Origin: Dehalococcoidia bacterium
GTDB lineage: Bacteria > Chloroflexota > Dehalococcoidia > GIF9 > AB-539-J10
Length of the DNA stretch: 22,442 nt
Direction of reading: 5' to 3'
NCBI GenBank assembly: GCA_030612025.1
Contig: JAUWOR010000012.1
Location: 1-22,442 of the forward strand
Shown: positions 825-21,709 of the stretch, piece by piece
Numbering within the stretch: position 1 is the first letter of the stretch
How the letters are laid out: every line of letters starts with the position of its first letter
Notes under the pieces: model-generated
The model's input: only the letters and a program-made list of their open reading frames with translations
What the model was told of the DNA's origin: nothing
The model's database searches: none
Made by a program: the position numbers and the translations under genes

Positions 825-961
825 TTGTGACTATCTGACTGTGGACTAGCGGCTGATTGACTAGCCTTGGCTTCTTGCCAGGCAATGATGTCTTCGAAGC
901 GAGTTAGTTTGGTTGGTTGGGATGGTTGGGATAGTTGGGATAGTTGAGTTGGTGTTTTCAT
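821..961 (-). pseudogene. N-terminal fragment of the outer four-helix-bundle gene with a QPS-repeat leader
   Basis: MKTPTQLSQLSQPSQPTKLTRFEDIIAWQEAK then runs into 7-mer repeats; FEDxxAWQ is the family N-terminal motif; 9-mer units at 916-951. Confidence 0.7.
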
Positions 962-1048
962 TTCTGCTGCTTTATCTGGGTTCCGTGTATTAGTTGCTTG
1001 ATTTTGGCTTCATTCTTGCCTACTACTGGCATTCATGCCTCCAGATTC

Positions 1049-1282
1049 TTATTTTCGTTTGCCACCTGTCAACCATTGCTCTCGATTTATGCTGGCACGC
1101 TTAAGTATCTCCTTCAATAGAGGAACATCAATATCTTGAGCATGAGGATTAGGAATGGTTAACCTAAAATCACCCTTTAGCATGAAATAGTGCTTCCCAC
1201 CGCGGTAAGGCCCTTCAAAAGTCATATTGCGTAGCTTTCGCACCAAGGTGTCCCAAGATACTGGCGTAAGGCGTTGAGTCAT
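1049..1282 (-). CDS. hicA: HicA-family toxin
   Basis: 77 aa, GGKH motif, LTIPNPH, LLKEILKRA; overlaps hicB by 4 nt. Confidence 0.88.
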   Translation of the reverse strand: MTQRLTPVSWDTLVRKLRNMTFEGPYRGGKHYFMLKGDFRLTIPNPHAQDIDVPLLKEILKRASINREQWLTGGKRK

Positions 1283-1530
1283 TTTGACTGGGTCACCTTA
1301 ACCTCCATATTCAGGTCAATGTCTCCTAAAGGAGTAATATTATGCCCCAGCCTTAGACCTAGAAGCAGCCAATCTTCAACCACCGACGCTAGCTCATCCC
1401 TGCATTCTTCAAGATTATTAGCAGCAGCCCACACACCAGGCAGCTCCTCAATCCACCCATAATAAGTCCCGTCTTCTAAGATTTTATATTTGGCCCGACG
1501 TGTAGCTTCACGCAAATATCTAGTAATCAT
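1279..1530 (-). CDS. hicB: Short HicB-family antitoxin
   Basis: YKILEDGTYYGWIEELPGVWA..LEECRDELASVVEDW. Confidence 0.88.
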   Translation of the reverse strand: MITRYLREATRRAKYKILEDGTYYGWIEELPGVWAAANNLEECRDELASVVEDWLLLGLRLGHNITPLGDIDLNMEVKVTQSK

Positions 1531-1550: not shown

Positions 1551-1640
1551 TTATCCTGCCTTGTCTTGGCTACCAATATATCCTTTGCTTATCATATAAT
1601 CCTTGAGTGCTTCTTGCCAAGCGTTCAAGTCATGCAAAGT
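1551..1640 (-). pseudogene. 3' fragment of dTDP-4-dehydrorhamnose reductase (rmlD-like), fused in frame to a QPS repeat (ORF 1551-1742)
   Basis: LHDLNAWQEALKDYMISKGYI matches the RmlD C-terminal WQEAL motif and the second fragment at 7191-7295. Confidence 0.7.
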
Positions 1641-1642
1641 TA

Positions 1643-1732
1643 GTTGAGATGGTTGGGATAGTTGAGATGGTTGGGATGGTTGGGATGGTTGAGATGGTTG
1701 AGATGGTTGGGATAGTTGAGATGGTTGAGATA
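1643..1732. repeat. 9-bp tandem repeat GTTG(A/G)GAT(G/A), 10 units
   Basis: Read directly; followed by gttggttcatttgct, identical to 338-352. Confidence 0.95.
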
Positions 1733-2601: not shown

Positions 2602-2936
2602 GTAAGGCGGGGATAAACCCCGCTGCATTTACCCTCATCCTTCGATAAACTCAGGACGGGCTCTTATTCCTCTCCCTTCAAGCGAGAGGGTAGTTGCCCA
2701 ATTTATTGGGCGATTGTGCCTGATGAATCAGGCAACTACAAACATCTGGGGGTGAAAGGCTTCCAAAACGCCCAAAATCGAACGGAAAATCAAAATTAAA
2801 CAGCCTTCTCCCTTCAAGGGAGAGGTTAGGTGAGGGGTAAGTGTCTCGTAGAGTCGGGGCTTGTCCCCGACTGAGGTATGAAAGTGAAGCAATTTCGCCT
2901 TGAGATTGCCTCGGGGCTTCACCCCTCGCAATGACA
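2602..2936. repeat. Patchwork of short palindromic (REP-like) elements
   Basis: gcggggataaaccccgc; cctctcccttcaagcgagagg and tctcccttcaagggaga; gtagagtcggggcttgtccccgact; gaagcaat..attgcctc..ctcgcaatgaca. Confidence 0.7.
2690..2806 (-). mobile_element. MITE-like element, copy 2 (module B at 2690-2739; far end missing)
   Basis: Reverse complement begins aggctgtttaattttg and continues ..tttcaccccca..gtagttgcc. Confidence 0.75.
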
Positions 2937-2976
2937 AGAGGGGTGTCGTTTTCACAGGCTCCGATAGTGAAATCCT

Positions 2977-3360
2977 TTAAGGGGCTAATATTTCCTTATC
3001 CCAGAACTTCTTGTCCTCTTCGTAAAACATCCTCTTGGCCCGAGCGTAATCAATTTCCGTAGATTTGCACTTAATCCTCTTTTGACAAAAGTCAAAGACA
3101 GGCATGTGGACAAAACAGTGAAAAACCTGGCTCAGATCACCATACCAATCCCTTAGGGTTGTCCAATTACCTCCCCCATTCAATTCGATATCCTCTCTAT
3201 CTTTTAGCCTCATTTTAATTTTGGGCAAAGGAATAGGGGGGCTAAGGTTACATAAAAACTCAACAATCCTATCTATTGTAAATACCCACCAGGGGGCTTG
3301 TTCAAGATAAATGTTTGCCTTCTTATAGATTGAATTTATGCCATAACTCCAGTTTTTCAT
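2977..3360 (-). CDS. Hypothetical protein
   Basis: 127-aa ATG ORF co-oriented with the array; no family recognised. Confidence 0.65.
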   Translation of the reverse strand: MKNWSYGINSIYKKANIYLEQAPWWVFTIDRIVEFLCNLSPPIPLPKIKMRLKDREDIELNGGGNWTTLRDWYGDLSQVFHCFVHMPVFDFCQKRIKCKSTEIDYARAKRMFYEEDKKFWDKEILAP

Positions 3361-3544
3361 TAGAACCGATTCACCTGATTGGAATAATCAATCCACACTT
3401 TTGTTCTATAATGCTTGCCATTCCCTTTGTTTTCCCTTCATAGGTAGCTTAGTCTCCTTAATCTTTCTCTTACTGCTCTTATCTCTTCCATTGTTTAGCT
3501 TATCATCCCCCTTATTTCATTACTCAATAAAGCCGATGTAGAGT

Positions 3545-3612
3545 TTAGTCCTGCTTCAAAGCCCAGTCATAGGGGATATCGTTATCAAAGGGGGGTCTAT
3601 GCGGAATTCATC
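3545..3612 (-). repeat. rmlC-like gene 3'-end copy C1
   Basis: DEFRIDP/FDNDIPYDWALKQD*, with 2 extra nt in the G-run. Confidence 0.85.
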
Positions 3613-3634
3613 ATGGCTATAATGTTAAGGGGGC

Positions 3635-4007
3635 TCACTCTTGCTTTTCAATTGGCAATGAACGCAGGCGTATGCGCGTTGCCTCCAATACCACGACACT
3701 GCCCTGCTCCAGCGATTCCCTGATAGTGGGCAAATTAGCAAGCAACAGAGCCAGCTGTGACTCAGGTTTCTTATACGGATGGCGTAGCAGGATTACCGAA
3801 GGCTTTTCATCATGCCACAATGCTAGCAGTGTGCCAAAGTCCGTGTCTGTTGAAACCAGTACACGGTTTTCTGCTGCCGCACGTTTAAATATCTCTTCGT
3901 CTGAAGCAGATTGTATTCCATAATCCCGCACATGTAGCATCATATCTAGCGTGCCTTAATCCTTCAGCGATGATAGGCGAAAGCACATTATCTATTAAGA
4001 ACCTCAC
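3635..4007 (-). pseudogene. DUF5615 PIN-like toxin, frameshifted near 3935
   Basis: GTG start MRFLIDNVLSP..RYDA is out of frame with [23 protein letters not shown]; span 373 nt. Confidence 0.85.
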
Positions 4008-4234
4008 GAAATGCGCACCAACGGAAGTTCACGTTCCCTTACTGCCTCAGCAGCGTAGCGTAGAACTTGGTGAATATCTTCAGTCTCAAGATCGGGATAT
4101 GCCTTTAATATCTCCTCCTCGCTCATCCCGTCAGCTACCATTCCTACCACCGTCGCCACTGGGATACGCAATCCACGAATACAAGGAAGTCCACCCATCT
4201 TATTCGACTCGACCGTAATACGTGTGAATTTCAT
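4004..4234 (-). CDS. DUF433 antitoxin
   Basis: MGGLPCIRGLRIPV..EEILKAYPDL..ED; TATAAT 10 nt upstream (4245-4250). Confidence 0.93.
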   Translation of the reverse strand: MKFTRITVESNKMGGLPCIRGLRIPVATVVGMVADGMSEEEILKAYPDLETEDIHQVLRYAAEAVRERELPLVRIS

Positions 4235-4311
4235 TTGTTTAACAATTATAGCTCAAAATCCCGTCTTTGGAAACATCATATCTACGAAGGTGAAGTTCCT
4301 AATCCACTTTT

Positions 4312-4342
4312 TTAGCCCTGCTTCAGTGCCCAATCATAGGGA
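4312..4342 (-). repeat. rmlC-like gene 3'-end copy C2
   Basis: PYDWALKQG*. Confidence 0.8.
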
Positions 4343-4365
4343 GTTGTTTAGCAACCACGCCTCTA

Positions 4366-4442
4366 GTCATTCTGAGCAAAGCGAAGAATCTAGACCCTTC
4401 GCTTGCCTCTTCGCTTCGCTCAGAGCTTTGACTCAGGGTGAC
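4366..4442. repeat. Palindromic REP-like element GTCATTCTGAG...CTCAGGGTGAC
   Basis: Imperfect terminal inverted repeats with an internal gcgaag/cttcgc stem. Confidence 0.65.
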
Positions 4443-4449
4443 AGAGTAA

Positions 4450-4560
4450 TTAAGACCAGTCATAGGGAATATCGTTGCCGAAGGGGTCGATGTGGAATTC
4501 ATCGGGCTCCTGGTGATTGTAAGGCTGGGTGACGGTATTTACCACATAGGCGGGCTGCAT
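4450..4560 (-). repeat. rmlC-like gene 3'-end copy C3 (longest)
   Basis: QPAYVVNTVTQPYNHQEPDEFHIDPFGNDIPYDWS*, typical C-terminus of the dTDP-4-dehydrorhamnose 3,5-epimerase family. Confidence 0.85.
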
Positions 4561-4876
4561 TTAGTTAAACCTTTACTCCCTCCTTTATCGCCTGTCTCAC
4601 TAGACCTATTTCCTTTCCTTTGGAACTCTTCTGGCGTATATCCTAAGATATCTAAATCATAGTCGTGGTCCCAGAGCTGATAAAGCATGAAAATCCTTTC
4701 CAGGAAATGCACCCCTTCGAATTTCTTACTCACTAGTAATATGTCGAAATCGCTTTCCTTAAACTCATCCCCTCTGGCTCTGCTGCCAAATAATATTCTT
4801 CCACTTCTAGATTCTTTTCAGCACTTTGGAGATCCTTTAAAGCTTGTTGCCACCATCTCTCTGCTTCTTTTCTCAT
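4539..4876 (-). pseudogene. Deleted HEPN-MNT module: HEPN N-terminus joined out of frame to a nucleotidyltransferase core
   Basis: MRKEAERWWQQALKDLQSAEKNLEVEEYYLAA, then in another frame ILFGSRARGDEFKESDFDILLVS..YTPEEF. Confidence 0.82.
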
Positions 4877-4909
4877 TTCCAGCCTCTTTGCATCTTTTCT
4901 ATGTCTATT

Positions 4910-4975
4910 TTAACCCTGCTTCAATGTCCAGGCATAGGGGATATCGTTATCGAAGGGGTCGATGGGGAATTCATC
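4910..4975 (-). repeat. rmlC-like gene 3'-end copy C4
   Basis: DEFPIDPFDNDIPYAWTLKQG*. Confidence 0.85.
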
Positions 4976-5028
4976 AGTTTTCCTACGCTTATAAAGTTAG
5001 TTGATGGTGTTAAACAAAGCCTCCAAAG

Positions 5029-5334
5029 CTACTTAACCCGCCGTCTCAAAGCTTCGTAAAGTCGCCCTCTACTTCCAATCATAATCACCAGAGCAATTCG
5101 AGCTTCAGGATAGATCTCATATATGATTCTATATTGAGTTCCCTTATAATTAAGATGATAAGACCAGAGTCCTTTAAATTCATAAAGAAGAGGGACAGCC
5201 TCAAAAGGGTCCCTCTCAATATTAGCAAAATGTTCCTCTTTGATTATCCTTTGTAATTGCTTATCTAGTTTACGGATATCGCTTTTGACGGCACTGGCAA
5301 ACTTGATAGTATACGTCGGTCTGTTAGTCAACAA
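5029..5334 (-). CDS. RelE/ParE-family toxin
   Basis: YTIKF..KSDIRKLD..L..KGLWSYH..YRIIYEI..IGSR; TTG start overlapping the antitoxin. Confidence 0.85.
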   Translation of the reverse strand: MLTNRPTYTIKFASAVKSDIRKLDKQLQRIIKEEHFANIERDPFEAVPLLYEFKGLWSYHLNYKGTQYRIIYEIYPEARIALVIMIGSRGRLYEALRRRVK

Positions 5335-5548
5335 ACAGCTCTACTTTGGATAAAGTTTTCCCTTCCTTAAGCTCTACCTTTGCTTTACGTCGCCTTTGCT
5401 TAAGCTCGGTTGCTAGCTCTGGTTGTAGTAGAAACTCCAGGGTTTCAAGCTCTGCTGAGCTAAGACCTTTCAGTAGATGAGCCAGTCGTTCGAGATTAAC
5501 CAGTTCAGCCCTATCCATTTCCTTTAAAGCACTGGACATTTTAATCAC
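5324..5548 (-). CDS. Putative antitoxin of the RelE-like toxin (start may be ATG 5539)
   Basis: Small ORF upstream of and overlapping the toxin; ELETLE.., C-terminal GKTLS..ELF. Confidence 0.7.
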   Translation of the reverse strand: MIKMSSALKEMDRAELVNLERLAHLLKGLSSAELETLEFLLQPELATELKQRRRKAKVELKEGKTLSKVELFVD

Positions 5549-5563
5549 CCCCTACTCTACTAC

Positions 5564-5695
5564 AGGCTGTTTAATTTTGATTCGTCGTTCAATTTCAGCC
5601 ATCTCAGAGGTGTTTCACCCCCAAATTTTTGTAGTTGCCTGATTTATCAGGCACAGTCGCCCAATAAATTGGGCAACTACATTTTTAAACGGCCT
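5564..5695 (+). mobile_element. MITE-like element, copy 3 (most complete; module B at 5631-5680)
   Basis: Terminal inverted repeats aggctgtttaa / ttaaacggcct (10/11), flanked by a ctac direct repeat (5560-5563, 5696-5699). Confidence 0.8.
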
Positions 5696-5764
5696 CTACT
5701 AAGCTTAGCATCATCTTCACTTGCCAGATTTTATCACATTTGTATTCTTTTAATAGTCTCATGT

Positions 5765-5818
5765 TTAGCCTTGTTTCGGGGCCCAGTCGTAGGGTATATC
5801 ATTGTCGAAAGGGTCAAT
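5765..5818 (-). repeat. rmlC-like gene 3'-end copy C5
   Basis: IDPFDNDIPYDWAPKQG*. Confidence 0.85.
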
Positions 5819-5860
5819 GATAAGGGTCGTCTAGTAACATGTTCCTGGTAGGCTCTGACC

Positions 5861-6238
5861 CTAGACACTCACATAATTTCTTGCCAACTTCTTATACCAT
5901 TCAGATTCTTTCTTCGTTACTAAATGCAATTCAAATGGATGGAAATATCCTAATGTCTTGTTAATTTTAGAGAGTATTTTTGCCCTTTCATCTAATCCCT
6001 TAGGAACATCATCAGAGATGATCAAAACGTCTATATCCGAAGCCATGGTATGTTTATCTTCTATAACAGAACCAAGAATTCCTACTTCTACATTCTCTAA
6101 ATTAACTGTGTCCTTGATTAATTTGGCATAATGTTTATAGTTGTCAAAATTTTTCCTTCTCTCTTTAGAGATTTCAGCAACTGTGTCTAGAAATGCAGCA
6201 GCCCTTTCTTGGAATATTTTGATTTCTTGTTTTCTCAT
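5861..6238 (-). CDS. Minimal nucleotidyltransferase (MNT) domain protein, possibly with a HEPN-derived N-terminus
   Basis: LGSV..SDIDVLII..PFELHLV. Confidence 0.82.
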   Translation of the reverse strand: MRKQEIKIFQERAAAFLDTVAEISKERRKNFDNYKHYAKLIKDTVNLENVEVGILGSVIEDKHTMASDIDVLIISDDVPKGLDERAKILSKINKTLGYFHPFELHLVTKKESEWYKKLARNYVSV

Positions 6239-6597
6239 CTTTGGTCTTTCTCCCGGCTATAGAGAACCTTTCCTGTGGCGATGATTTCGGTAATGAAGCG
6301 ATTTCCCTCAGCGGACATTTTTTCTAGCTCTTCTTCAGTATAGCCAATGGGCTCGAGAGGAAGCCCAAACTGGTTCATATCCAGTAAAACCTTGATTCTG
6401 TCAAGAAAATCTTCCTGCCAAGCAGATATCACAATCAGGTCAACATCAGACCCCTCGTTGAAATCCCCCTTGGCCAAAGAGCCAAACAAGATGATTTTTT
6501 TCGGCTTTAGCTCCTGGATTACCTTGTTTTTATATCTTTCTATTCTTTCAAATATTTCTTGACTTCTGCCAATATCAATGTTGCATAGCTTAAGCAT
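6235..6597 (-). CDS. Minimal nucleotidyltransferase (MNT) antitoxin
   Basis: IILFGSLAKGDFNEGSDVDLIVI..YTEEE..GKVLY. Confidence 0.9.
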   Translation of the reverse strand: MLKLCNIDIGRSQEIFERIERYKNKVIQELKPKKIILFGSLAKGDFNEGSDVDLIVISAWQEDFLDRIKVLLDMNQFGLPLEPIGYTEEELEKMSAEGNRFITEIIATGKVLYSREKDQR

Positions 6598-6947
6598 GTC
6601 TTGGCCATCTCCTCGGTATAGTATCTATATGGAGCACCGGAGGGGTAAAAATTGGGATATCTTGAAGCTATATAATGCCTATCAAGCTCTTTAGCGAAAT
6701 CGATGAATTGCCTGAATTTTCCCCCAAATTTTGAACACTCCTCAATTAAATCAACGACTGAATGTGTTATCAGCGCCCTGAATCCTTGGGAATATAAAAT
6801 CCCCTTAAGTCCCTTTTCAGCCAACTGCTGACTAAAAAATGCAGAGGCGTAGTAGTTTCCGTCTCGGAGGCAATCTTGAGCTGTTTTCAGGTCGGCTTCT
6901 GCTTGCTCAAGCCACCTTAAACCTTCTCTCAAATTATTGTTCATCAT
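6540..6947 (-). CDS. HEPN domain protein
   Basis: WLEQAEADL..YYASAFFSQQLAEKGLKG..TH..LDRHYIASRYP. Confidence 0.9.
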   Translation of the reverse strand: MMNNNLREGLRWLEQAEADLKTAQDCLRDGNYYASAFFSQQLAEKGLKGILYSQGFRALITHSVVDLIEECSKFGGKFRQFIDFAKELDRHYIASRYPNFYPSGAPYRYYTEEMAKTCLSYATLILAEVKKYLKE

Positions 6948-7074
6948 TTATCCCTTTCCACTACCGCGCATTATATAGAATTTATTACTCTAAAGATAGA
7001 ATGGCTATGGCAAGTTTGAATGTCTAGGATTGCTCTTTTTGTGGATGGGGCTTGAGCCTTGATTTAGAAGTTTT

Positions 7075-7192
7075 AGGCTGTTTAATTTTGCTCGTCCAGT
7101 TTTAATAATCTTCACCCCCAAGATTCTCGTAGTGCGACCCTTTAGGGTCGTGCACGAGGCTAAAGCCTCGCACTACGTTTTTAAACACCCTC
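7075..7192 (+). mobile_element. MITE-like element, copy 4 (module A at 7129-7176)
   Basis: aggctgtttaattttg..ttcaccccca..GTAG module..tttttaaacaccctc. Confidence 0.78.
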
Positions 7193-7295
7193 ATTGTTTA
7201 ATATGTCCTTTCTCTATCATATAACCTTTGAGCGCCTCTTGCTAAGTTCTCATGTCGTCCATACCTAAAAGTTTGGGAAGGTAGTTATCAAGCAG
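7191..7295 (-). pseudogene. 3' fragment of rmlD-like reductase with a W-to-TAG change
   Basis: LLDNYLPKLLGMDDMRT*QEALKGYMIEKGHIKQ*. Confidence 0.75.
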
Positions 7296-8600
7296 CTATA
7301 TGGAGAGTCTGCGGGCAAGGACATAGATGGCTACTGCAGCCTGGGCTCCAAGCCAGGCATAGCCAATGCCCATTATGCCGCTGGCGGGCATAATTAGATA
7401 GCTGACTAGAAGCACCGCTAAAGCGATAAATCCCCAGATTGCCATGAGCTCCTTTAGTCTGCTTTTTACCCGCAGTATGCTGGTGTATAGGTGGTTAATC
7501 GCTAACGGCAGGCTGGAGAGGCTCAGAATCCAGAGCAGCCTTAAGGCATTTAAGGAATAGCTTTGCCCAAAGGCAAGCAGCAGCCATTTGCCCACCAAAA
7601 TAAGCACGGTCACTGCCGGAACCAGGAGCAGGAAGGTGAATTTGAGAGATTTGGTTACATTTTCCCTCAGCTTGTTTTCGAAGTGAGAGCCCTCGGCAAA
7701 TAAGGATTGGGAAACTGCTAGAGGGATGGCGGAAAGCAAGCCAGCTATCGCCCAGGCGATGTAGAAGTAAGCATTTTGCTCAGCGCCCAGAAGGTTGACC
7801 ACCATTAGGGGTAAGATAAGTGGTGGAGAGGATGCCAATAGATTGGCTAAGTAATTGCCTCCAGAATATCGCCACATATCCTTGATTAAGCCTAACCTTA
7901 GATTGGGTGCGGGCTTATAAAGTTTCTGGACTCTGGGCAGAAACAAGAAAATAGAAATAGCTAGAGCTACGGCGATGGCGATGCCCCAAGAAGCAACTAT
8001 GCCAAAGGTGCGGAAGAATAGAACGAAAAGAATGGGCAGGGGGATTTTGAGCACCGAGTAGATGGTGTTCTTGGATAAGACAAAGCCGGCTCGCCTTTTG
8101 GCTATGAAGGTATAGTCTACTAAACTTGATAATGTCCAGAGTAAGGCGAAAATGATGAAGGCTGCGGTGAAGATGGCATTTTGCCTGACGAAGGCTAAGG
8201 CTGGCGACCAGAAACCCAGGCCAACAATGAAGATACTGGCTACCACCAGGCTGACGAGGCCGCTCAGGGTATAGCAGGAGTTTATCAATTGTTGTGGTTT
8301 GTCTGCCTGAGGCAGGAAGCGGATAAGCGAGGTATTTAAGCCGACCAGGCTTATGGCGGCGATGAGACTGATGGCTGATATTATGGCGGAGCTGAAGCCC
8401 ACCTCGGCTTCGGGATAAAATCTAGCCACCACCATCCAGAAGAAGAAGCCACAAAAAGCCATGACCGCGGTATTGAGCATGAGGTAAAAGGCATTGCTAT
8501 AAAGGGGGGTAGTAACAACTTGCTTCAGCTTCCGTCTGGAGGTAATGGTATCTATGGCTTCAGTGACTACCTTGAGGAAAGTGAAGTTGGTTGATTTCAA
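7296..8600 (-). CDS. Oligosaccharide flippase (Wzx/MOP family); start uncertain
   Basis: About 12 hydrophobic segments; GFFFWMVVAR, GLNTSLIRFLP; glycan-locus context. Confidence 0.85.
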   Translation of the reverse strand: MKSTNFTFLKVVTEAIDTITSRRKLKQVVTTPLYSNAFYLMLNTAVMAFCGFFFWMVVARFYPEAEVGFSSAIISAISLIAAISLVGLNTSLIRFLPQADKPQQLINSCYTLSGLVSLVVASIFIVGLGFWSPALAFVRQNAIFTAAFIIFALLWTLSSLVDYTFIAKRRAGFVLSKNTIYSVLKIPLPILFVLFFRTFGIVASWGIAIAVALAISIFLFLPRVQKLYKPAPNLRLGLIKDMWRYSGGNYLANLLASSPPLILPLMVVNLLGAEQNAYFYIAWAIAGLLSAIPLAVSQSLFAEGSHFENKLRENVTKSLKFTFLLLVPAVTVLILVGKWLLLAFGQSYSLNALRLLWILSLSSLPLAINHLYTSILRVKSRLKELMAIWGFIALAVLLVSYLIMPASGIMGIGYAWLGAQAAVAIYVLARRLSI

Positions 8601-8610
8601 TATCGCCTCG

Positions 8611-9297
8611 TTATGATAAGTCCTCCAGGCTTCCTATATCAATCCAGGATTCAGTGAAGGGGTAGGCGTGGACTTCATCCTTATCTATCAGGTAAACGAT
8701 AAAGCTGCCCAAGTTATCTCTTTTGCCCCGCTGGCAATATTGGTGGAGGAGGGGAAATATCCGTTGAGGGAAGATATAGCAGGCGGTAGCAACAAGGCTT
8801 GACTTGGGCTTGGCTGGCTTTTCCTGGAATTCAGCTATCCTGTGCCCATCCAGTTGCACCACGCCAAACTGGCTGGCCTTACCTTTGTCGCCGATATCGT
8901 AAACAGCTACCAGGGTATGCTTGCCATCATATCTGGCTATGAATTGAGCCAAATCGAACTCAAAATAGTTATCCCCGGCGATAACCAAGAGGTCTTCATC
9001 TATGGTTTTTTTCCCAATCCAGAAGTTAAGCGAGCCAACAGCGCCTAGCTTCTGATCCTCGCTTAAAACTTCCTCTACCAGGATTTCCACCTTTCTGTTT
9101 ATTGTTCCTTGCCAGTGATGAAAATCAGCCTCAAACTTTTTGTTGGTGTTAACCATGATGTCTATATTTTTGGGAATCTTAGCCACGATATGGCTTATTA
9201 TCGGGTTGCCTTTATATCCCAGTAAGGCTTTTGCCCGGTTAATGGTCAAGGGATATAACCTGGTGCCAAAGCCGCCAGCCAGTATTAAGCATTTCAT
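8611..9297 (-). CDS. Sugar-phosphate nucleotidyltransferase (NTP_transferase family)
   Basis: ILAGGFGTRLYPLT, GDN, FGVV, FQEKP, WIDIG. Confidence 0.93.
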   Translation of the reverse strand: MKCLILAGGFGTRLYPLTINRAKALLGYKGNPIISHIVAKIPKNIDIMVNTNKKFEADFHHWQGTINRKVEILVEEVLSEDQKLGAVGSLNFWIGKKTIDEDLLVIAGDNYFEFDLAQFIARYDGKHTLVAVYDIGDKGKASQFGVVQLDGHRIAEFQEKPAKPKSSLVATACYIFPQRIFPLLHQYCQRGKRDNLGSFIVYLIDKDEVHAYPFTESWIDIGSLEDLS

Positions 9298-9391: not shown

Positions 9392-9517
9392 AGGCTGTTT
9401 AATTTTGCCTCAATCAGATTTTCGTAGTGCGACCTTTTAAGGTCGTGCACGAGGCTAAAGCCTCGCACTACATTTGTAAACAGTCGCCCAATAAATTGGG
9501 CAACTACATTTTTAAAC
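9392..9517 (+). mobile_element. MITE-like element, copy 5 (module A plus half of module B)
   Basis: Identical to 1-122 over 9396-9517. Confidence 0.8.
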
Positions 9518-9745: not shown

Positions 9746-12139
9746 CTATTCACTTCTAATGTACTCGAATATCTTCACCGCTGGCTTGCCTTGCCATTTC
9801 TGTGCTGAGCTATAAACCAGCTGGTAATGCGTCATTTCTTCCAGGGGCACAGGAGTAACGAATGGGTCAGAATTCCCAATGACATACTTCCCAGATTCCT
9901 GGCTCAAGATGTAGGCTTTGGCTTCTTCATAGCCGGGGAAGGACCAAGAATTGCTGACCTCCTTATACTGTACCCCTTCTTTGCTTGTTTTCCATTCCCA
10001 GGAGATGACTATGGTGGAGTTCTCCGAAGGAACGGCAGCCTGGCCATTAAAATTGTATAGCCTGACAACAGTGGAACAATAGTAGCTGGGATAAAAGAAG
10101 GATACCCGCTTTAATTCTCCCCCTTCCTGCGGCACATAGTAAGTTCCATGAAAGTCATCGGGGCTGCCGCCAATAAATTGTGGCATGGCATAGAATTTTG
10201 TAGTGGGCATGGCATAATCAATTATGACATATCTTGAGCCCAGCTTGTCCATCATCTGATTAGCCGAGCCCTCATCTTGAGCAGTGAAGAAGCGGGCTGC
10301 CTCTGAGGCGCCCTGCTGAAATGGGTTAGAAATGGGTATGCGGTGGGCAATACGAGTTATCCAATGTCCATAATCCCACCAGGATATTATGCTATAGGCA
10401 GATTCCGGGTAGTGGAATGGAGTTTGGTATAATTCATAATAAGAATTGGGGTCAGCAAAGGGTTCGGGGCTGTTATCCTTGAGCCACAGAAGGGAGTCAT
10501 ACCAGGCATGGTCAATGAGAGCAGGTTCACTGGCAAGTGGCTGTGTCAACTTAACAGGTAGTCCCAGAACCTTGGTGTAGGGCTTAATGCCAGGGAGTCC
10601 AATACAAGGGAAGAAAACCAGGAAAAAGATAACCACGCCGGCTGCAAGCACCTTTGTCCAGGTGGCTCTGCGTTGCTGCAGTGCTTTTTCTCGTGCCCTC
10701 GCTTCAGCCTTCCTCCATTTCTTGGCTTTCTTGACCACTTCGACTACCGCTGCAGGCGGGGCGAGCAATTTTTTTAAGCCAGCAAAGTCGAGGATTCTCC
10801 AGGAGAAGTATCCCGTGAGCAAAGCAGCATTTATGGCGTAGTAATAGCTGAAGCGGCGTTGCCCCAGGACGGCTGCCAGCATGACGATACTCCATACCAG
10901 GAACAACGTCTTGCCAGCACTTTCTTCTCTGATATTGCGGTAAATGAGCCAGCCGAGTGAAATGAAGGAGATGAAAAAGGTAGTGGTAAAGTTAAACCAG
11001 GCTATTTGGAGAGAGAAGTGACCGTAGGGGAAAAGAAGAGGATGCACCTCTAGGATAGTCAGCGAGGCGCCAGCGGGAGTGAAGACGCGAAATCTGCCGA
11101 GCATCGAGTGCAGCAAAGAAGGGTTAATGATATAGAAAGCGGCAAAGCCGATTGCAGCGAGGGCAAATATTGCTGGCAGGTAATAAATGGGCTTTATGGC
11201 CTTGCTTGTCATAAGTCGCGAAATACTACTTAGCACCAAGGGTGTTACTATGGCAATTATCAGAGATGCATGCTGGATAGTCGATACCCAAATTTGACCT
11301 AAGAGGGGAAGGGAGATTATGCAGGCAACAAGGAAGGATAGGGTGCCGGTGATACATAAGTAATCAGTTGGTTTACCTTTCAGGTGGTCTATGAGGAATT
11401 GAATTACTACATAGGTGAAGATGATAAACACAAGTAGCAACCCACCCACCCAGGTGAGAAGGTAAATGCCGAGGAAGATGCCAGCTAACAAGGTATAGAT
11501 GAGAGGCTTGGTGATAATCTGCCAACTTCTGTTTATTAAGTGAGCAAACGATATTTCCCTTTCTCTGGCTGTTTTGACCGCCAGAATCAAAAATAGTATG
11601 GTTAGCGTGGTAAACAAAGTCTCGGCCACATGGTGGTCGGTAAAGCCAAGCAGGGAGCGATTTAAAAACTCGCCGGGCAGTATAACGACTAAGGCAGCCG
11701 ATAACAAACCCACCCAGCGGTTAAATAACTCCTTGCCAATGAAATAGACCGGGATAATGGTTAGAGTGCCCAAAATAGCGGGAATATAGGCACCAACGAG
11801 GTCTATGGTATGCTGACTTGGTGAACCTAAGCCAACAAGCCGAATAACGCCAGCGACGAGCCAGTCAAAGAATGGAGGCCAGGGCACTGTGGTGCCGTGG
11901 GGATAGAAGGTATAAGGGTCGAAGGTGATATGGTGAGGAAAGTGGTGGAGCAGGTTATCCACCAATCTCATGTGATACCAGGCATCAGTTCCTTTGAACC
12001 AGACTGAACCATTGACGAAAACCTGGTCATAGGGCAGAGCTATGCGTATATATAATGAGATGCCGCAGAGGATGAATAAAATTATACCAATTATAGCTGC
12101 AAGAGGAATTTTACCCTTCTGACTTGGTTGCTCGCTCAC
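9746..12139 (-). CDS. Oligosaccharyltransferase STT3 subunit, AglB-like
   Basis: 797 aa, multi-TM; GTDAWYH, DHHVAE, RFSYY, SWWDYGHWI, SNPFQQG. Confidence 0.95.
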   Translation of the reverse strand: MSEQPSQKGKIPLAAIIGIILFILCGISLYIRIALPYDQVFVNGSVWFKGTDAWYHMRLVDNLLHHFPHHITFDPYTFYPHGTTVPWPPFFDWLVAGVIRLVGLGSPSQHTIDLVGAYIPAILGTLTIIPVYFIGKELFNRWVGLLSAALVVILPGEFLNRSLLGFTDHHVAETLFTTLTILFLILAVKTAREREISFAHLINRSWQIITKPLIYTLLAGIFLGIYLLTWVGGLLLVFIIFTYVVIQFLIDHLKGKPTDYLCITGTLSFLVACIISLPLLGQIWVSTIQHASLIIAIVTPLVLSSISRLMTSKAIKPIYYLPAIFALAAIGFAAFYIINPSLLHSMLGRFRVFTPAGASLTILEVHPLLFPYGHFSLQIAWFNFTTTFFISFISLGWLIYRNIREESAGKTLFLVWSIVMLAAVLGQRRFSYYYAINAALLTGYFSWRILDFAGLKKLLAPPAAVVEVVKKAKKWRKAEARAREKALQQRRATWTKVLAAGVVIFFLVFFPCIGLPGIKPYTKVLGLPVKLTQPLASEPALIDHAWYDSLLWLKDNSPEPFADPNSYYELYQTPFHYPESAYSIISWWDYGHWITRIAHRIPISNPFQQGASEAARFFTAQDEGSANQMMDKLGSRYVIIDYAMPTTKFYAMPQFIGGSPDDFHGTYYVPQEGGELKRVSFFYPSYYCSTVVRLYNFNGQAAVPSENSTIVISWEWKTSKEGVQYKEVSNSWSFPGYEEAKAYILSQESGKYVIGNSDPFVTPVPLEEMTHYQLVYSSAQKWQGKPAVKIFEYIRSE

Positions 12140-12175
12140 TTAGCTACCTTTCAAACAAGATTTTACCAAATTTTT

Positions 12176-12225
12176 GTAGTTGCCTGATTTATCAGGCACA
12201 GTCGCCCAATAAATTGGGCAACTAC
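12176..12225 (+). repeat. REP-like module B
   Basis: gtagttgcctgatttatcaggcacagtcgcccaataaattgggcaactac, identical to 5631-5680. Confidence 0.9.
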
Positions 12226-12555
12226 ATGTTTATTACTATCTATATATTCAGCAGGAATGCCAGTTGCCCAGCTATTGGGATATCTGGCCGGAATATAAAA
12301 TCTGTCTAACTGTTTGGCTCCATCCACCAACTCGTCCGGAACATTTATCTTTTCTCTACTCACCTTTAACAAATCAGTTACTGAATGTCCCCATGCTTCA
12401 GCTCCCATCTTTTGGTAAATTGCCTTAATCGCCTTCTCTGGCGCTTGTTGGGCTATAAAACAGGACCATTCAAAAAAACCGTCTTCCATCTATGCTCGGG
12501 CACTATCTAAATCTCTCCAAGCTTGCTTGATCCAATCACTGCTTCTTTCTGGCAT
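12226..12555 (-). pseudogene. HEPN domain gene with an internal TAG (12490-12492) and a truncated 3' end
   Basis: MPERSSDWIKQAWRDLDSARA*MEDGFFEWSCFIAQQAPEKAIKA..GH..LDRFYIPARYPN; no MNT partner follows. Confidence 0.85.
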
Positions 12556-12790: not shown

Positions 12791-12862
12791 AGCGGGTGAT
12801 GGGATTCGAACCCACGACGTCTTGCTTGGGAAGCAAGCACTCTACCGCTGAGTTACACCCGC
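12791..12862 (-). tRNA. tRNA-Gly(CCC)
   Basis: Cloverleaf: GCGGGTG acceptor stem, CTTGC-TTCCCAA-GCAAG anticodon arm, GTTCGAATC; CCA not encoded. Confidence 0.97.
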
Positions 12863-14104: not shown

Positions 14105-14650
14105 TTAGCGGTAACTTTCACGAAATACTAGTTCAGAGAATTTCTTCCTGGACGGTGTTTTTGCCTCTTTCGCAGGGTAACCTAAGGGAGTCATCTCAAC
14201 TACGACTACACCTTGTGGCACATTCAAAAGCTAGGCAGCTTTCTGGGCATCAAAGTGGCCCACGTGTACAGTTCCCAAACCAAGCGAGTGAGCGGCCAGG
14301 GTGAGGTTTTGCATAGCTAAAGCTACATCGAACATATACCACCAATCACCCTTGTCTGTGACTAGCTTACCTTCGTGAAAGCCAGATTTGCCTAGTTCTG
14401 CGCCGGCCACGATGATTACTGGTGCCTCTTTAATAGCTGAGCGCGCTGGGTTTCCAGGCCCAAGAGTTTCAGCTAATCTAGCTTTCTTTTCACTATCCTT
14501 AACTATTACGAATCTCCAGCACTGACTGTTCTTTTAAGAAGGTGTCCAGCGAGCTGCTTCCAGAACTGTGTTGAGTTTCTTTTCGGATATGGCATCGGGT
14601 TTATAATGCCGAATGCTACGCCTTGTTTTTATTGCTTCAAGCACCTCCAT
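14105..14650 (-). pseudogene. Nitroreductase family gene with two in-frame stops
   Basis: [56 protein letters not shown]; stops at 14534-14536 and 14231-14233. Confidence 0.9.
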
Positions 14651-14668
14651 CAGCCTTTTACCTACTTT

Positions 14669-14816
14669 TATTTAAGAGTGCGACCCTTTAAGGTCGTGCA
14701 CGAGGCTAAAGCCTCGCACTACATTTTTAAACACCCGCTATTTAAGCTGCCTGATTTATCAGGCATAATCGCCCAATAAATTGGGCAACTACATTTTTAA
14801 ACACCCGCTATTTAAG
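14669..14816 (+). repeat. Tandem of two 70-bp units carrying module A then module B
   Basis: tatttaag at 14669, 14739 and 14809; 29-bp direct repeat at 14718-14746 and 14788-14816. Confidence 0.85.
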
Positions 14817-15480: not shown

Positions 15481-15718
15481 GGATAAAGGATAGCACTACA
15501 AGGACCAGTATTATCGCTCCGGCAAGAATACCGATGCGTCGTAGCTCAGGCATCAAGTATTGATAGTATTTTGCAGGATCTTTGACCTCAGGAGACACCT
15601 TACCGGCTAATTGAAGTTGGGCAGTTACTGGCTTGAGTGATTGGGAATACTTCCTCTGTGTTTCTTGTGCTAACTTGGCACGGTGTTTCGCTTTAGCCCG
15701 ACGCGATTTCTTAGGCAT
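15473..15718 (-). CDS. Hypothetical small protein with a basic N-terminus and C-terminal TM helix
   Basis: Translationally coupled between the recombinase and pcm. Confidence 0.75.
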   Translation of the reverse strand: MPKKSRRAKAKHRAKLAQETQRKYSQSLKPVTAQLQLAGKVSPEVKDPAKYYQYLMPELRRIGILAGAIILVLVVLSFILG

Positions 15719-16581
15719 TATTCACTTACCTTAGCTAAGGGCGAGGACTGCTTGTAGATTCTAGTACTGGAAATATAGGCATGGCCTAAAGCTCGCTGGA
15801 TGGATTGAAGGTCAGCACCACTTTGTAATTTGCGTGCCGCGAAGCTATGACGCAAGGTGTGCGGCGTAATCTTAGCACTAAACCCAGCTTTAGAAGCATG
15901 GTTTTTAACAATCTGCCAAAATCCCTGCCGGGTAAGCCGACCACCACGCCGGTTGAGAAATAGCGCTTTTTCCTTTTCATCATATAATAAATCAAGTCTA
16001 TCATTCTCAAGGAAATTTCTTAATATCTGGTTTATATGGTGGTCAAAGGGGATCTGCCTTTTAGAGCTACCATGGGCACAGTGTACACAAGAACGCTCCA
16101 AGTCTATATCCTTCACGTTTAGAGATACTAGCTCACTAGCACGCAAACCAGTAGCGTAAAGTAACTCTAACATCACCACATCTCTCCTGGCTTCTGGAGT
16201 GGATAGTTTTTTTGGCTCTGCCAGCAAACAGCGATACTCAGACGGAGACAAAAATTTAGGCGAATGCTTGCTAACTCGAGGAGAAATTAAATTCCTTGTT
16301 GGATTCTCTCTTAGCTTGCCTGAAGCAACCATAAATTTAAAAAAAGACTTGGCCGAGGCTACTTTGCGAGCTACTGTAGCAGTGGAATATCTCCTTTCCC
16401 TGAGGTTAAGCAGATAGCTCTTTAAAAGCTCGCCACTTGACTTAATTATTCCTTTTGCCCTCTCTGCTTCAGTGTAAGCCATTAGCTGGTTCAAATCATT
16501 ACGATAAGCAGCCAAGGTATTCTGTGAGCAATTTTTCTTCTTAGCTAGATAGCCAAGGAAAGCTTCAATATCTTCCTTCAT
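15718..16581 (-). CDS. Tyrosine recombinase, XerD/XerC-like
   Basis: SAM-like N-domain (SQNTLAAYRNDL), LYATGLRASEL, HTLRHSFA, LGH, STRIY. Confidence 0.92.
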   Translation of the reverse strand: MKEDIEAFLGYLAKKKNCSQNTLAAYRNDLNQLMAYTEAERAKGIIKSSGELLKSYLLNLRERRYSTATVARKVASAKSFFKFMVASGKLRENPTRNLISPRVSKHSPKFLSPSEYRCLLAEPKKLSTPEARRDVVMLELLYATGLRASELVSLNVKDIDLERSCVHCAHGSSKRQIPFDHHINQILRNFLENDRLDLLYDEKEKALFLNRRGGRLTRQGFWQIVKNHASKAGFSAKITPHTLRHSFAARKLQSGADLQSIQRALGHAYISSTRIYKQSSPLAKVSE

Positions 16582-21591: not shown

Positions 21592-21709
21592 TCTTGGTGA
21601 CTAGAGCGGAGTGGAACCACCCGTTCCCATCCCGAATACGGAAGTGAAACGCTCCAGCGCAGACGATACTTAAGGGGCAACCCTTTGGGAAAATAGGCCG
21701 TTGCCAGGA
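21592..21709 (+). rRNA. rrf: 5S rRNA (stand-alone)
   Basis: cacccgttcccatcccgaatacggaagtgaaac..gcgcagacgatact..gggaaaatagg..ttgccagg; terminal helix I pairs. Confidence 0.95.

Follow-up and report, generated by a model that had tools for sequence, protein, structure and literature searches.

Displaced 3′ ends of an rmlC-like gene punctuate an array of toxin-antitoxin cassettes in a Dehalococcoidia genome

Chromosomal toxin-antitoxin (TA) pairs are plainly mobile yet usually lack a mobility gene, and how they move has been a long-standing loose end. We analysed the whole of contig C16 (22,442 bases; JAUWOR010000012.1 of assembly GCA_030612025.1), called the window below, of G000, a metagenome-assembled genome (MAG) of a Dehalococcoidia bacterium (1.40 Mb in 19 contigs; completeness 95.6%, contamination 1.7%). 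Its minus strand holds, from position 5818 to 3545, an array in which small cassettes of TA type are separated by partial copies of the 3′ end of an rmlC-like gene. The explanation to which we give somewhat better than even chances is homology-driven accretion: cassettes were stacked by recombination at the gene end, each displacing the resident end, and the gene at the head of the array was later lost in this genome.

Displaced gene ends and the cassettes between them

The intact RmlC-like gene of G000 sits outside the window, on contig C13 (5433-5933), and its 166-residue product served as the reference for residue numbering. The protein matched PF00908 with 53.3 bits (cut-off 27) and PF14667 with 56.4 bits; the FdtA profile gave 21.5 bits, under its cut-off of 23. 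Judged by these profiles, the gene is an RmlC-like cupin of the dTDP-4-dehydrorhamnose 3,5-epimerase family (PF00908) and a predicted epimerase. Its neighbours on C13 are presumably rmlA, rmlB and rmlD, an assignment made by reading. The fragments of the array mapped to residues 128-166 of the reference (tblastn, 60-100% identity, E values of 5e-18 to 1e-6), as had been expected from their resemblance to RmlC-type C-termini. A back-translated motif of the gene end, with up to three mismatches allowed, matched five times in G000 (four times in the window, once on C13), and the reversed control pattern had no match in the 202 genomes of the order; the copies are thus not chance resemblances. The same C-terminal motif is kept in an RmlC-like subfamily found over many phyla (71 intact genes among the 80 loci listed). 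The labels c1 to c5 run from low to high coordinates.

5765-5818, minus strand: c5, former head of the array, 5′-truncated; residues 150-166 and TAA, 94% identity to the C13 gene product
4910-5017, minus strand: c4, displaced end; tblastn 60% identity over residues 132-166, E 2.8e-10
4450-4560, minus strand: c3, residues 128-162, then a serine codon and a stop
4312-4342, minus strand: c2, last nine codons and TAA
4312-4560, minus strand: c3, palindromic insert and c2 taken together as a single end, residues 128-166 (tblastn, flank comparison)
3545-3612, minus strand: c1, oldest of the displaced ends; residues 146-166, frameshifted by one base (tblastn)
3438-3524, minus strand: remnant of a ribbon-helix-helix (RHH)-like gene, last 29 codons with one internal stop; tblastn 66% identity, E 1.6e-10

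The preliminary description had counted five co-oriented copies, and all five were recovered at these coordinates on the minus strand. The segment between c3 and c2 is a 107-nt insert (4343-4449) that belongs to a dispersed palindromic repeat with 35 partial and three long copies in G000, and a 13-nt stretch with one mismatch stands on both sides of it. Because c3 and c2 are split by this repeat with a 13-nt duplication, they are best read as one copy, so that the array has four displaced ends rather than five. The same split is present in the metagenome contigs L107 and L125. In c4, residues 146-166 (4975-4910) are well kept and residues 132-145 (5017-4976) are decayed. The 20 nt downstream of c5 match the sequence downstream of the C13 gene. 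The frameshift of c1 is shared by the metagenome contig L104. An RHH-like gene follows the gene end in the relatives G001, G015 and G018, and because the remnant of such a gene (3524-3438) stands behind c1, this copy is orthologous to the single relic of those relatives.

The array is headless, with c5 truncated at residue 150 and no intact gene before it. It had been stated that neither an intact epimerase nor an integrase lies in the array; this holds for the array itself, with an intact gene on C13 and an XerD-like gene 10 kb away. The array is decaying, as seen from the frameshift in c1, the repeat in c3/c2, a broken DUF5615 gene, a decayed cassette of HEPN and minimal nucleotidyltransferase (MNT) type, and the truncated c5. 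The copies measure 54 to 122 nt, and their left ends differ (c5 +6, c3 -58). A role of the copies as promoter or small ORF was considered from the sequence and set aside: hexamers resembling -35 and -10 elements occur with a spacer of 11-13 nt, and an out-of-frame ATG opens a 17-codon frame in all copies.

The cassettes between the copies belong to unrelated families, and Pfam assigned them to known TA types. The features between and directly before the copies are these.

6540-6947, minus strand: HEPN gene, PF05168, 103 bits
6235-6597, minus strand: nucleotidyltransferase gene, PF18765/PF01909, 49.6/46.2 bits
5861-6238, minus strand: second nucleotidyltransferase gene, PF01909, 40 bits
5621-5687, no strand assigned: dispersed repeat resembling a miniature inverted-repeat transposable element (MITE), between c5 and the ParD-like gene; family D4, four copies in the window
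5029-5548, minus strand: ParDE-type cassette, with a 74-residue partner (5324-5548) and ParE (5029-5334)
4539-4876, minus strand: decayed HEPN/nucleotidyltransferase cassette, HEPN at 4733-4876 and MNT at 4539-4733
3635-4234, minus strand: DUF433/DUF5615 cassette, with DUF433 at 4004-4234 (PF04255, 83.8 bits) and DUF5615 at 3635-3943 (PF18480, 62.9 bits)

The HEPN gene and the two nucleotidyltransferase genes (5861-6947) stand before c5 in place of the gene body. The ParDE-type cassette matched PF15781 (28 bits) and PF05016 (27.8 bits), and its 74-residue partner had no Pfam match. In the decayed cassette, the HEPN remnant scored 23.4 bits against PF05168 over 47 residues, and the MNT relic corresponds to residues 36-100 of MNT1 (tblastn). 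The DUF5615 open reading frame (ORF) is split, its N-terminus lying out of frame at 3885-4007. The labels first given to these cassettes, a RelE pair, a HEPN-MNT relic and DUF433/DUF5615, were confirmed by Pfam, with ParE as the toxin of the first. The predicted type II TA families found in this way are ParE, DUF433/DUF5615, HEPN/nucleotidyltransferase, HicAB and PIN/DUF2281.

Since the window is a whole short MAG contig, one could envision that the array is an assembly artefact, a chimera that strings strain variants together through shared repeats. Unitigs do break at the dispersed repeats (4278-4398 and 5616-5668), and the order of the blocks therefore rests on assembly through repeats. To this explanation we nevertheless give almost no credence. 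In X2, one of four runs (X2, X4, X5 and X6) taken as Logan contigs or unitigs assembled from other samples, every relic-cassette junction lies within a single unitig and is repeated without a difference (records 2-5), and depth is even, at about 20-24, outside the repeats. Record 11 of X4 spans the stretch from DUF433 through c2 to the repeat. Independent contigs from the Joint Genome Institute (JGI) carry orthologous junctions for c1 (L104), c4 (L158) and c3 (L150). Two Logan joints with short sides were left unused (X2, 4980 to 5726; X6, 2935 to 7341, side 35-40), and the part of the window that X5 and X6 leave uncovered (4561-4862) is uninformative. A contig of X6 lacks the repeat at 5621-5687 and joins 5542 to 5694.

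The repeating unit in relatives and the alleles of its ends

A near-identical RmlC-like gene (at least 79% identity over the full length) was found in 5 of 41 related genomes, and the gene-end motif in 9 of the 202 genomes of the order, a patchy distribution. Behind the gene, G015 has a HicB-like gene and then a relic, and G018 has a HicB-like cassette and relic as in G015. The order in G001 is flippase, rmlD relic, HicBA, gene, ParDE, relic, and in G029 the flippase stands directly behind the gene with no cassette. A scan of metagenomes for the gene end gave 59 loci (L-numbered contigs), five of which start within the gene end at a contig edge and were not classed. One or more displaced ends were present at no fewer than 22 of the 59, counted by eye from protein maps; L102, L125, L137, L141, L149 and L154 have two each and L150 has three. 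The number and order of cassettes at this gene end thus vary among relatives, as had been anticipated, and empty sites occur as well. In many phyla the picture is different: among the 80 loci listed, examined as 8-kb chunks, only 1 of the 71 intact genes carried its last 36 residues a second time (L078, which is G015), which makes the phenomenon specific to the lineage rather than a feature of the gene. Weak second-copy matches in L060 and L067 proved to be unrelated sequences.

Alignments of the flanks defined the repeating unit as the sequence right after the stop codon, the cassette, and a partial gene end up to its stop. Each cassette begins directly after the stop codon of an intact or a displaced gene end, and the junction between cassette and copy is fixed for each class of cassette. 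The classes were set by reading these alignments; automatic labelling made errors, placing class C and several class D rows under 'other' and c3 under 'intact'.

Class A: ParE whose TGA stop falls within the opening bases of the copy; nine rows
Class B: another ParE followed by a decayed stretch; c4 and L158
Class C: HicB-like gene; five rows
Class D: DUF5615; c1, L104 and four others
Class E: HEPN/MNT with a long copy; c3 and L150

Behind an intact gene, L158 has the class B ParDE cassette with its relic type, and the c4 relic is orthologous there; L150 has a fuller HEPN/MNT cassette with the same relic type as c3. The units also occur in other combinations: in X5 and X6, two runs of other studies, the DUF5615 cassette adjoins a c5-type copy, the order also seen in L102, and the class B ParDE adjoins a c1-type copy.

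Each class was found in at least three downstream contexts, namely RHH genes, the flippase, ugd or another cassette. The same contexts also exist empty, with the RHH gene (L120, L127), the flippase (L015, L110, L124, L147, L153) or ugd (L131) directly following the gene. When the sequence downstream of the empty gene was compared with that downstream of the relic in an occupied locus, 107 of 130 positions agreed for L127/L014, 102 of 135 for L127/L144, 115 of 146 for L110/L134 and 147 of 150 for C13/L158, C13 of G000 being the empty counterpart of L158. The alignment of the same empty downstream sequence with the sequence after the intact gene of the occupied contig did not exceed 14 nt. Direct repeats of the target 3′ end with the target restored are seen in G001, G015, L102, L128, L158 and others; the truncation of c5 means that the window lacks a restored target. 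The proposal that an incoming piece brings a replacement end, shifting the resident end and the older cassettes downstream, agrees with this topology, the empty sites and the alleles described below. In contrast, the notion of a platform for small cassettes only did not hold, as copies also bracket larger blocks, one of 5 kb with flippase and glycosyltransferase genes (L125) and one of 6.6 kb with sugar genes (L137).

A few related arrangements were seen at these loci. A gene of the 23S rRNA intervening-sequence protein (23S-IVP) family acts as a further cassette and stands directly after the stop of the intact gene in L136; in L016 (G013; 7753-7812) and L137 (12786-12836) such a gene borders on a gene-end copy truncated at an identical internal base. 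The copy in G013 continues the reading frame of the N-terminal half of a HicB-like gene, to which it is fused. In L018 (G002; 8849-9088) and L103 (583-757) the RmlC-like gene has an internal deletion that joins residues from about 2 to 31 or 47 to residues 127 or 138 to 166, leaving stubs with a head and a tail.

The alleles of the ends were compared over codons 146-166, where random single changes would be synonymous in 18.5% of cases. Between the intact end and the relic of the same contig, 47 differing codons were synonymous and 19 were non-synonymous in eight pairs (71%, 47/66), or 40 and 15 after removal of a duplicate record (L116, identical to L014). This excess over the random expectation confirms the first impression that many of the differences are synonymous and indicates that the ends stem from different working alleles. 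The synonymous share of differing codons was 82% (4877/5947) between intact ends, 65% (4030/6230) between intact ends and relics, and 52% (779/1488) between relics; codons found only in relics altered the residue in 31 of 35 cases. As judged from these counts, both ends of a locus diverged mostly as working gene ends in separate lineages, and the relic drifts only after displacement.

These alleles bear on the alternative of de novo insertion with long target duplication. Such insertion of restriction-modification (RM) genes is reportedly a subject of Nobusato et al. (2000). Applied to the array, breaks on either side of the stop codon, staggered by about 55-120 nt, would be filled by repair synthesis, which duplicates the end, and allele exchange in the intact gene would follow later. 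In the published cases, an RM unit lacks a mobility gene and lies between direct repeats, more than 30 and up to about 420 bp long, of which the empty-site genome has a single copy (PMC2853133). Some of the repeats overlap a gene 3′ end, and the repeats in general were proposed to serve later amplification; most cases come from competent species (PMC2853133; review PMC3874152). In the literature consulted this is the closest described case, and the inserts studied here follow the published pattern in that they are addiction-type, selfish units without mobility genes, between direct repeats longer than 30 bp that are single when the site is empty; the variation in copy length between host genes (59-139 nt) also suits it. 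They differ in cargo (type II TA pairs and relatives instead of RM genes), in stacking up to four units that recur in several contexts, and in that the copies are diverged alleles instead of near-identical duplicates. Specifically, same-contig copies differ at 4-11 of 21 codons, with a minimum of 4 differences in 63 nt, so that no identical or near-identical pair exists, and the upstream copy is another allele. From the 18.5% we estimate about 30% synonymous differences for a recent duplication in which one copy evolves neutrally, against the 71% observed. Finally, the same cassette with the same junction in at least three contexts means that most occurrences are transfers of ready-made units and not new duplications. 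We regard an origin by long target duplication as improbable for the array. No description of classical TA pairs with long target duplication was met in the literature on target duplication, on TA pairs with direct repeats and on Dehalococcoidia, a survey of search results and selected passages; the supplementary figures of PMC2853133 may hold closer cases.

The RmlC-like gene is not the only host of such units. A self-comparison of G000 found ten 3′ ends of long ORFs that recur 0.5-2.5 kb downstream at low copy number. By reading, we would count four of the ten (on C1, C4, C13 and C14) as the same phenomenon, and that at C5:126289 possibly so; two loci on C12 and that at C18:6709, and perhaps also those at C18:55294 and C5:27994, rather resemble paralogues or larger insertions. 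The rmlD-like gene on C13 is followed by a ParE-type pair and its own 121-nt end (13 synonymous and 4 non-synonymous differences), and relics of this gene are also found on metagenome contigs. An 864-residue gene (C1:107999-111225), putatively SecA-like by reading, has a ParE pair and its own 59-nt end (7 and 1), and a 456-residue gene (C4:68441-70464) has HicBA and its own 110-nt end. A platform specific to the sugar gene, as first envisaged, is thereby contradicted, and the same structure at these three genes argues against one site-specific attachment (att) site.

Proposed recombination at the gene end

In the accretion that we favour, the incoming DNA would carry its own working allele of the gene end together with a cassette. 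On the left, the incoming gene would pair with the resident gene; on the right, the short gene-end copy behind the cassette would pair with the resident gene end. The product would be a gene with the incoming end, the cassette, and then the resident end, duplicated and displaced downstream. Repeated insertion and unequal exchange between copies could add, delete and reorder units. The gene-end copy of 54-122 nt would thus act as a portable homology arm, giving a cassette access to every genome with the gene, irrespective of the downstream sequence. In G000 the head gene would have been lost later, as c5 is cut at residue 150, with the working copy on C13. The engine would most likely be host homologous recombination, with no need for a dedicated integrase.

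No recombinase ORF was found in any unit or beside any array examined in the window, the relatives and the metagenome contigs. PF00589 had three matches in G000, two full Xer-like tyrosine recombinases and one fragment, and serine recombinases numbered zero in this 95.6%-complete genome. Folding of c1, c3, c4, c5 and the intact end on both strands (10 folds) gave minimum free energies of -1.8 to -11.4 kcal/mol with z-scores of -2.3 to +1.2 and no attC-like hairpin, a result of folding only, without an attC-specific detector. An Rfam scan of the window found no family in the array, its matches being a 5S rRNA and two tRNAs only. The lack of a recombinase in the units and of an attC fold, together with the occurrence at several unrelated gene ends, favours host homologous recombination, and we consider ordinary recombination the likely engine of the array.

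Several observations weigh against this account. In four classes the left edge of good homology lies no more than about 10 nt from a 9-nt site, GATGAATTC; in the c4 and c1 types a decayed match extends farther upstream. A shared left limit of this kind is expected from a fixed crossover or a common founder relic but not from plain homologous recombination. It could reflect either of the first two, the latter if the classes go back to a single founder relic and its right part keeps being refreshed. Class A relics carry varied host-like synonymous variants almost to the left border, which suits a crossover near the border. A position-wise comparison of linkage to upstream and downstream neighbours covered 15 relics with a classed upstream neighbour (z of 2.3 at most), a sample too small to decide and one in which the protein-based labels lumped the two ParE classes. 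ComEC and DprA are present but give no evidence of natural competence, as they also match in non-competent control genomes. No carrier was found in viral contigs, where 42 stretches matching the pattern for ParE class A and two for the RmlC-like protein were scanned and none was confirmed. Nor did a circular or excised form of a unit appear in the sequencing runs, whose assembled contigs could not have shown one. Finally, accretion leaves unexplained how each class first gained its gene-end copy. Restriction-ligation at the GAATTC in the shared border was considered and rejected, as the homology in all four classes runs 2-12 nt past this site.

Given the shared left limit at the 9-nt site, an enzyme may help. 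One scenario is that a recombinase acting in trans, Xer-like or of another family, inserts circular cassettes near GATGAATTC, with the gene-end copy as the att site, in which case the units would resemble integrase-less satellites of islands that target tRNA genes or gene ends. The clustered left borders and the host-like class A relics would be expected under this scenario; the homology always extends exactly to the stop codon, as in target-restoring elements, and the XerD-like tyrosine recombinase gene lies in the window itself, at 15718-16581. Even so, we think this scenario unlikely. It must do without a recombinase in any cassette or beside any array, in a genome with just two Xer-like and no serine recombinases; the unrelated gene ends share no sequence, so several att sites would be needed; the copies vary from 54 to 122 nt with differing left ends; and no inverted-repeat core or hairpin was found.

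The array has counterparts in several known systems. In tandem islands at the 3′ ends of tRNA, transfer-messenger RNA (tmRNA) or protein genes, the element brings a replacement 3′ end and displaces the resident one, and arrays form. Examples are the ssrA-targeted islands of Dehalococcoides, which belongs to the same lineage (Dehalococcoidia), and the tycheposons of Prochlorococcus. The array shares with them the replacement end, the displaced resident end and the punctuation by partial target copies; unlike the islands, which encode or use a dedicated integrase, its units have none, are 0.4-0.9 kb long and sit at several unrelated protein genes. With integron arrays and integrase-less attC clusters it shares small, co-oriented cassettes, many of them TA, a repeat behind each, and variable order and content. 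However, there is no IntI or attI (the nearest PF00589 match is the XerD-like gene), and the repeat is coding sequence without an attC-like fold, so that the integron analogy offered in the preliminary description fails as a mechanism. By engine, the array is most similar to the minimal mobile elements of Neisseria; in these, and in the defence hotspots flanked by core genes, strains swap whole-gene cassettes by homologous recombination in conserved flanks, without mobility genes. Their flanks are two different genes, and the cassettes replace each other, whereas both flanks of the array are the same gene end, and cassettes therefore accumulate and the array grows. The pdif modules of Acinetobacter plasmids are likewise small, often TA, bounded by short sites and variably combined. 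They use 28-bp XerC/XerD sites in alternating orientation; the array has direct gene ends of 54-122 nt on a chromosome, and no dif-like site turned up, although no formal search for one was made.

The loci form a readable natural series of empty site, one unit, several units, reshuffled and decayed, which makes the movement of TA pairs testable and shows both the topology of the move and the replacement of a working gene's end by the incoming allele. For a wider claim we would not quite give even chances, namely that TA pairs and small selfish genes in these Dehalococcoidia travel as integrase-free, 'homology-addressed' cassettes at several gene ends, with a 55-120-nt copy of the end of a conserved housekeeping or sugar gene as their portable attachment site, restoring the gene with their own allele and stacking into integron-like arrays. 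If the gene-end copy is indeed a portable arm, this would be a simple, testable route by which selfish and defence genes spread in lineages poor in classical mobile elements, and it would also explain 'TA islands' beside polysaccharide genes. The displaced ends can serve as markers for dating and ordering acquisitions in uncultured genomes.

Surroundings of the array and minor observations

Further relics and a HicBA pair lie on either side of the array, and dispersed repeats run through the window.

7197-7316, minus strand: rmlD-like 3′ relic, residues 250-289; tblastn with the C13 protein, 70% identity, E 2.8e-9
1575-1643, minus strand: second rmlD-like 3′ relic, residues 266-288; tblastn, 74% identity, E 5.9e-5
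1279-1530, minus strand: HicB, of a HicB and HicA pair with PF21748 (90.7 bits) and PF07927 (29.7 bits)
1049-1282, minus strand: HicA, directly before the RmlC-like 5′ relic
961-1032, minus strand: 5′ relic of the RmlC-like gene, residues 2-26; 64% identity, E 0.003
1-122, 7101-7222, 9396-9517 and 14647-14768, no strand assigned: dispersed repeat family (repeat comparison)
5621-5687, 12166-12232 and 14733-14799, no strand assigned: dispersed repeat family (repeat comparison)
2690-2740, no strand assigned: dispersed repeat (repeat comparison)

The first rmlD-like relic stands directly behind a flippase gene (7296-8600), an arrangement also present in G001/L116, and the two rmlD-like ends bracket the whole block from 7316 to 1575. 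In G001 the same HicBA pair stands before the intact RmlC-like gene. This layout looks circularly permuted, as a 5′ relic of the RmlC-like gene lies downstream of its 3′ relics; together with the bracketing it could suggest that a region of gene plus TA was duplicated in tandem within one genome and then lost parts by deletion and decay. Such a history is very improbable in our judgement. The cassettes between the copies are of unrelated families, the units stand singly behind intact genes elsewhere and in other orders, empty sites exist, and the copies differ in the manner of alleles.

An initial stretch of 25 codons of the RmlC-like gene lies behind HicB(A) both in the window (961-1032) and in L020 (G003; 7093-7167), running into a 23S-IVP-family gene in the former and into an aminotransferase-like ORF of 387 residues in the latter; as this is seen in two genomes, 5′ ends are also carried with cassettes. 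An ORF of 127 residues at 2977-3360, without a Pfam match, stands behind the c1-type relic also in L104 and L115.

Runs of a 9-nt tandem repeat occupy 171-393, 892-981 and 1602-1797 (families D1/D2). On the minus strand this repeat encodes (P/L)SQ repeats at the N-termini of small ORFs, and two such stretches are joined to four-helix bundle genes of the 23S-IVP family (PF05635, 74.9 bits, 457-681). A near-identical 23S-IVP-family gene starts contig C13, so the 9-nt repeat probably broke the assembly. The dispersed repeats (families D3-D6) are 50-120 nt long, with internal palindromes, and MITE-like; their depth is very high in all four sequencing runs, and unitigs break there.

A HEPN gene at 12163-12489 (PF05168, 71.5 bits) lacks the first 18 or so profile positions and ends within the dispersed repeat at 12166-12232; it is a lone cassette beside a tRNA-Gly gene (12791-12862). 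Positions 9746-12139 encode a 797-residue oligosaccharyltransferase of STT3/AglB type (PF02516, 112 bits; PF22627, 102 bits), which adjoins a sugar nucleotidyltransferase and the flippase in this bacterial genome, and homologues stand beside rml genes in G013 and L137. The 5S rRNA gene of the Rfam scan lies at 21593-21709 (88.5 bits), and the same scan gave no 16S or 23S match on the contig.

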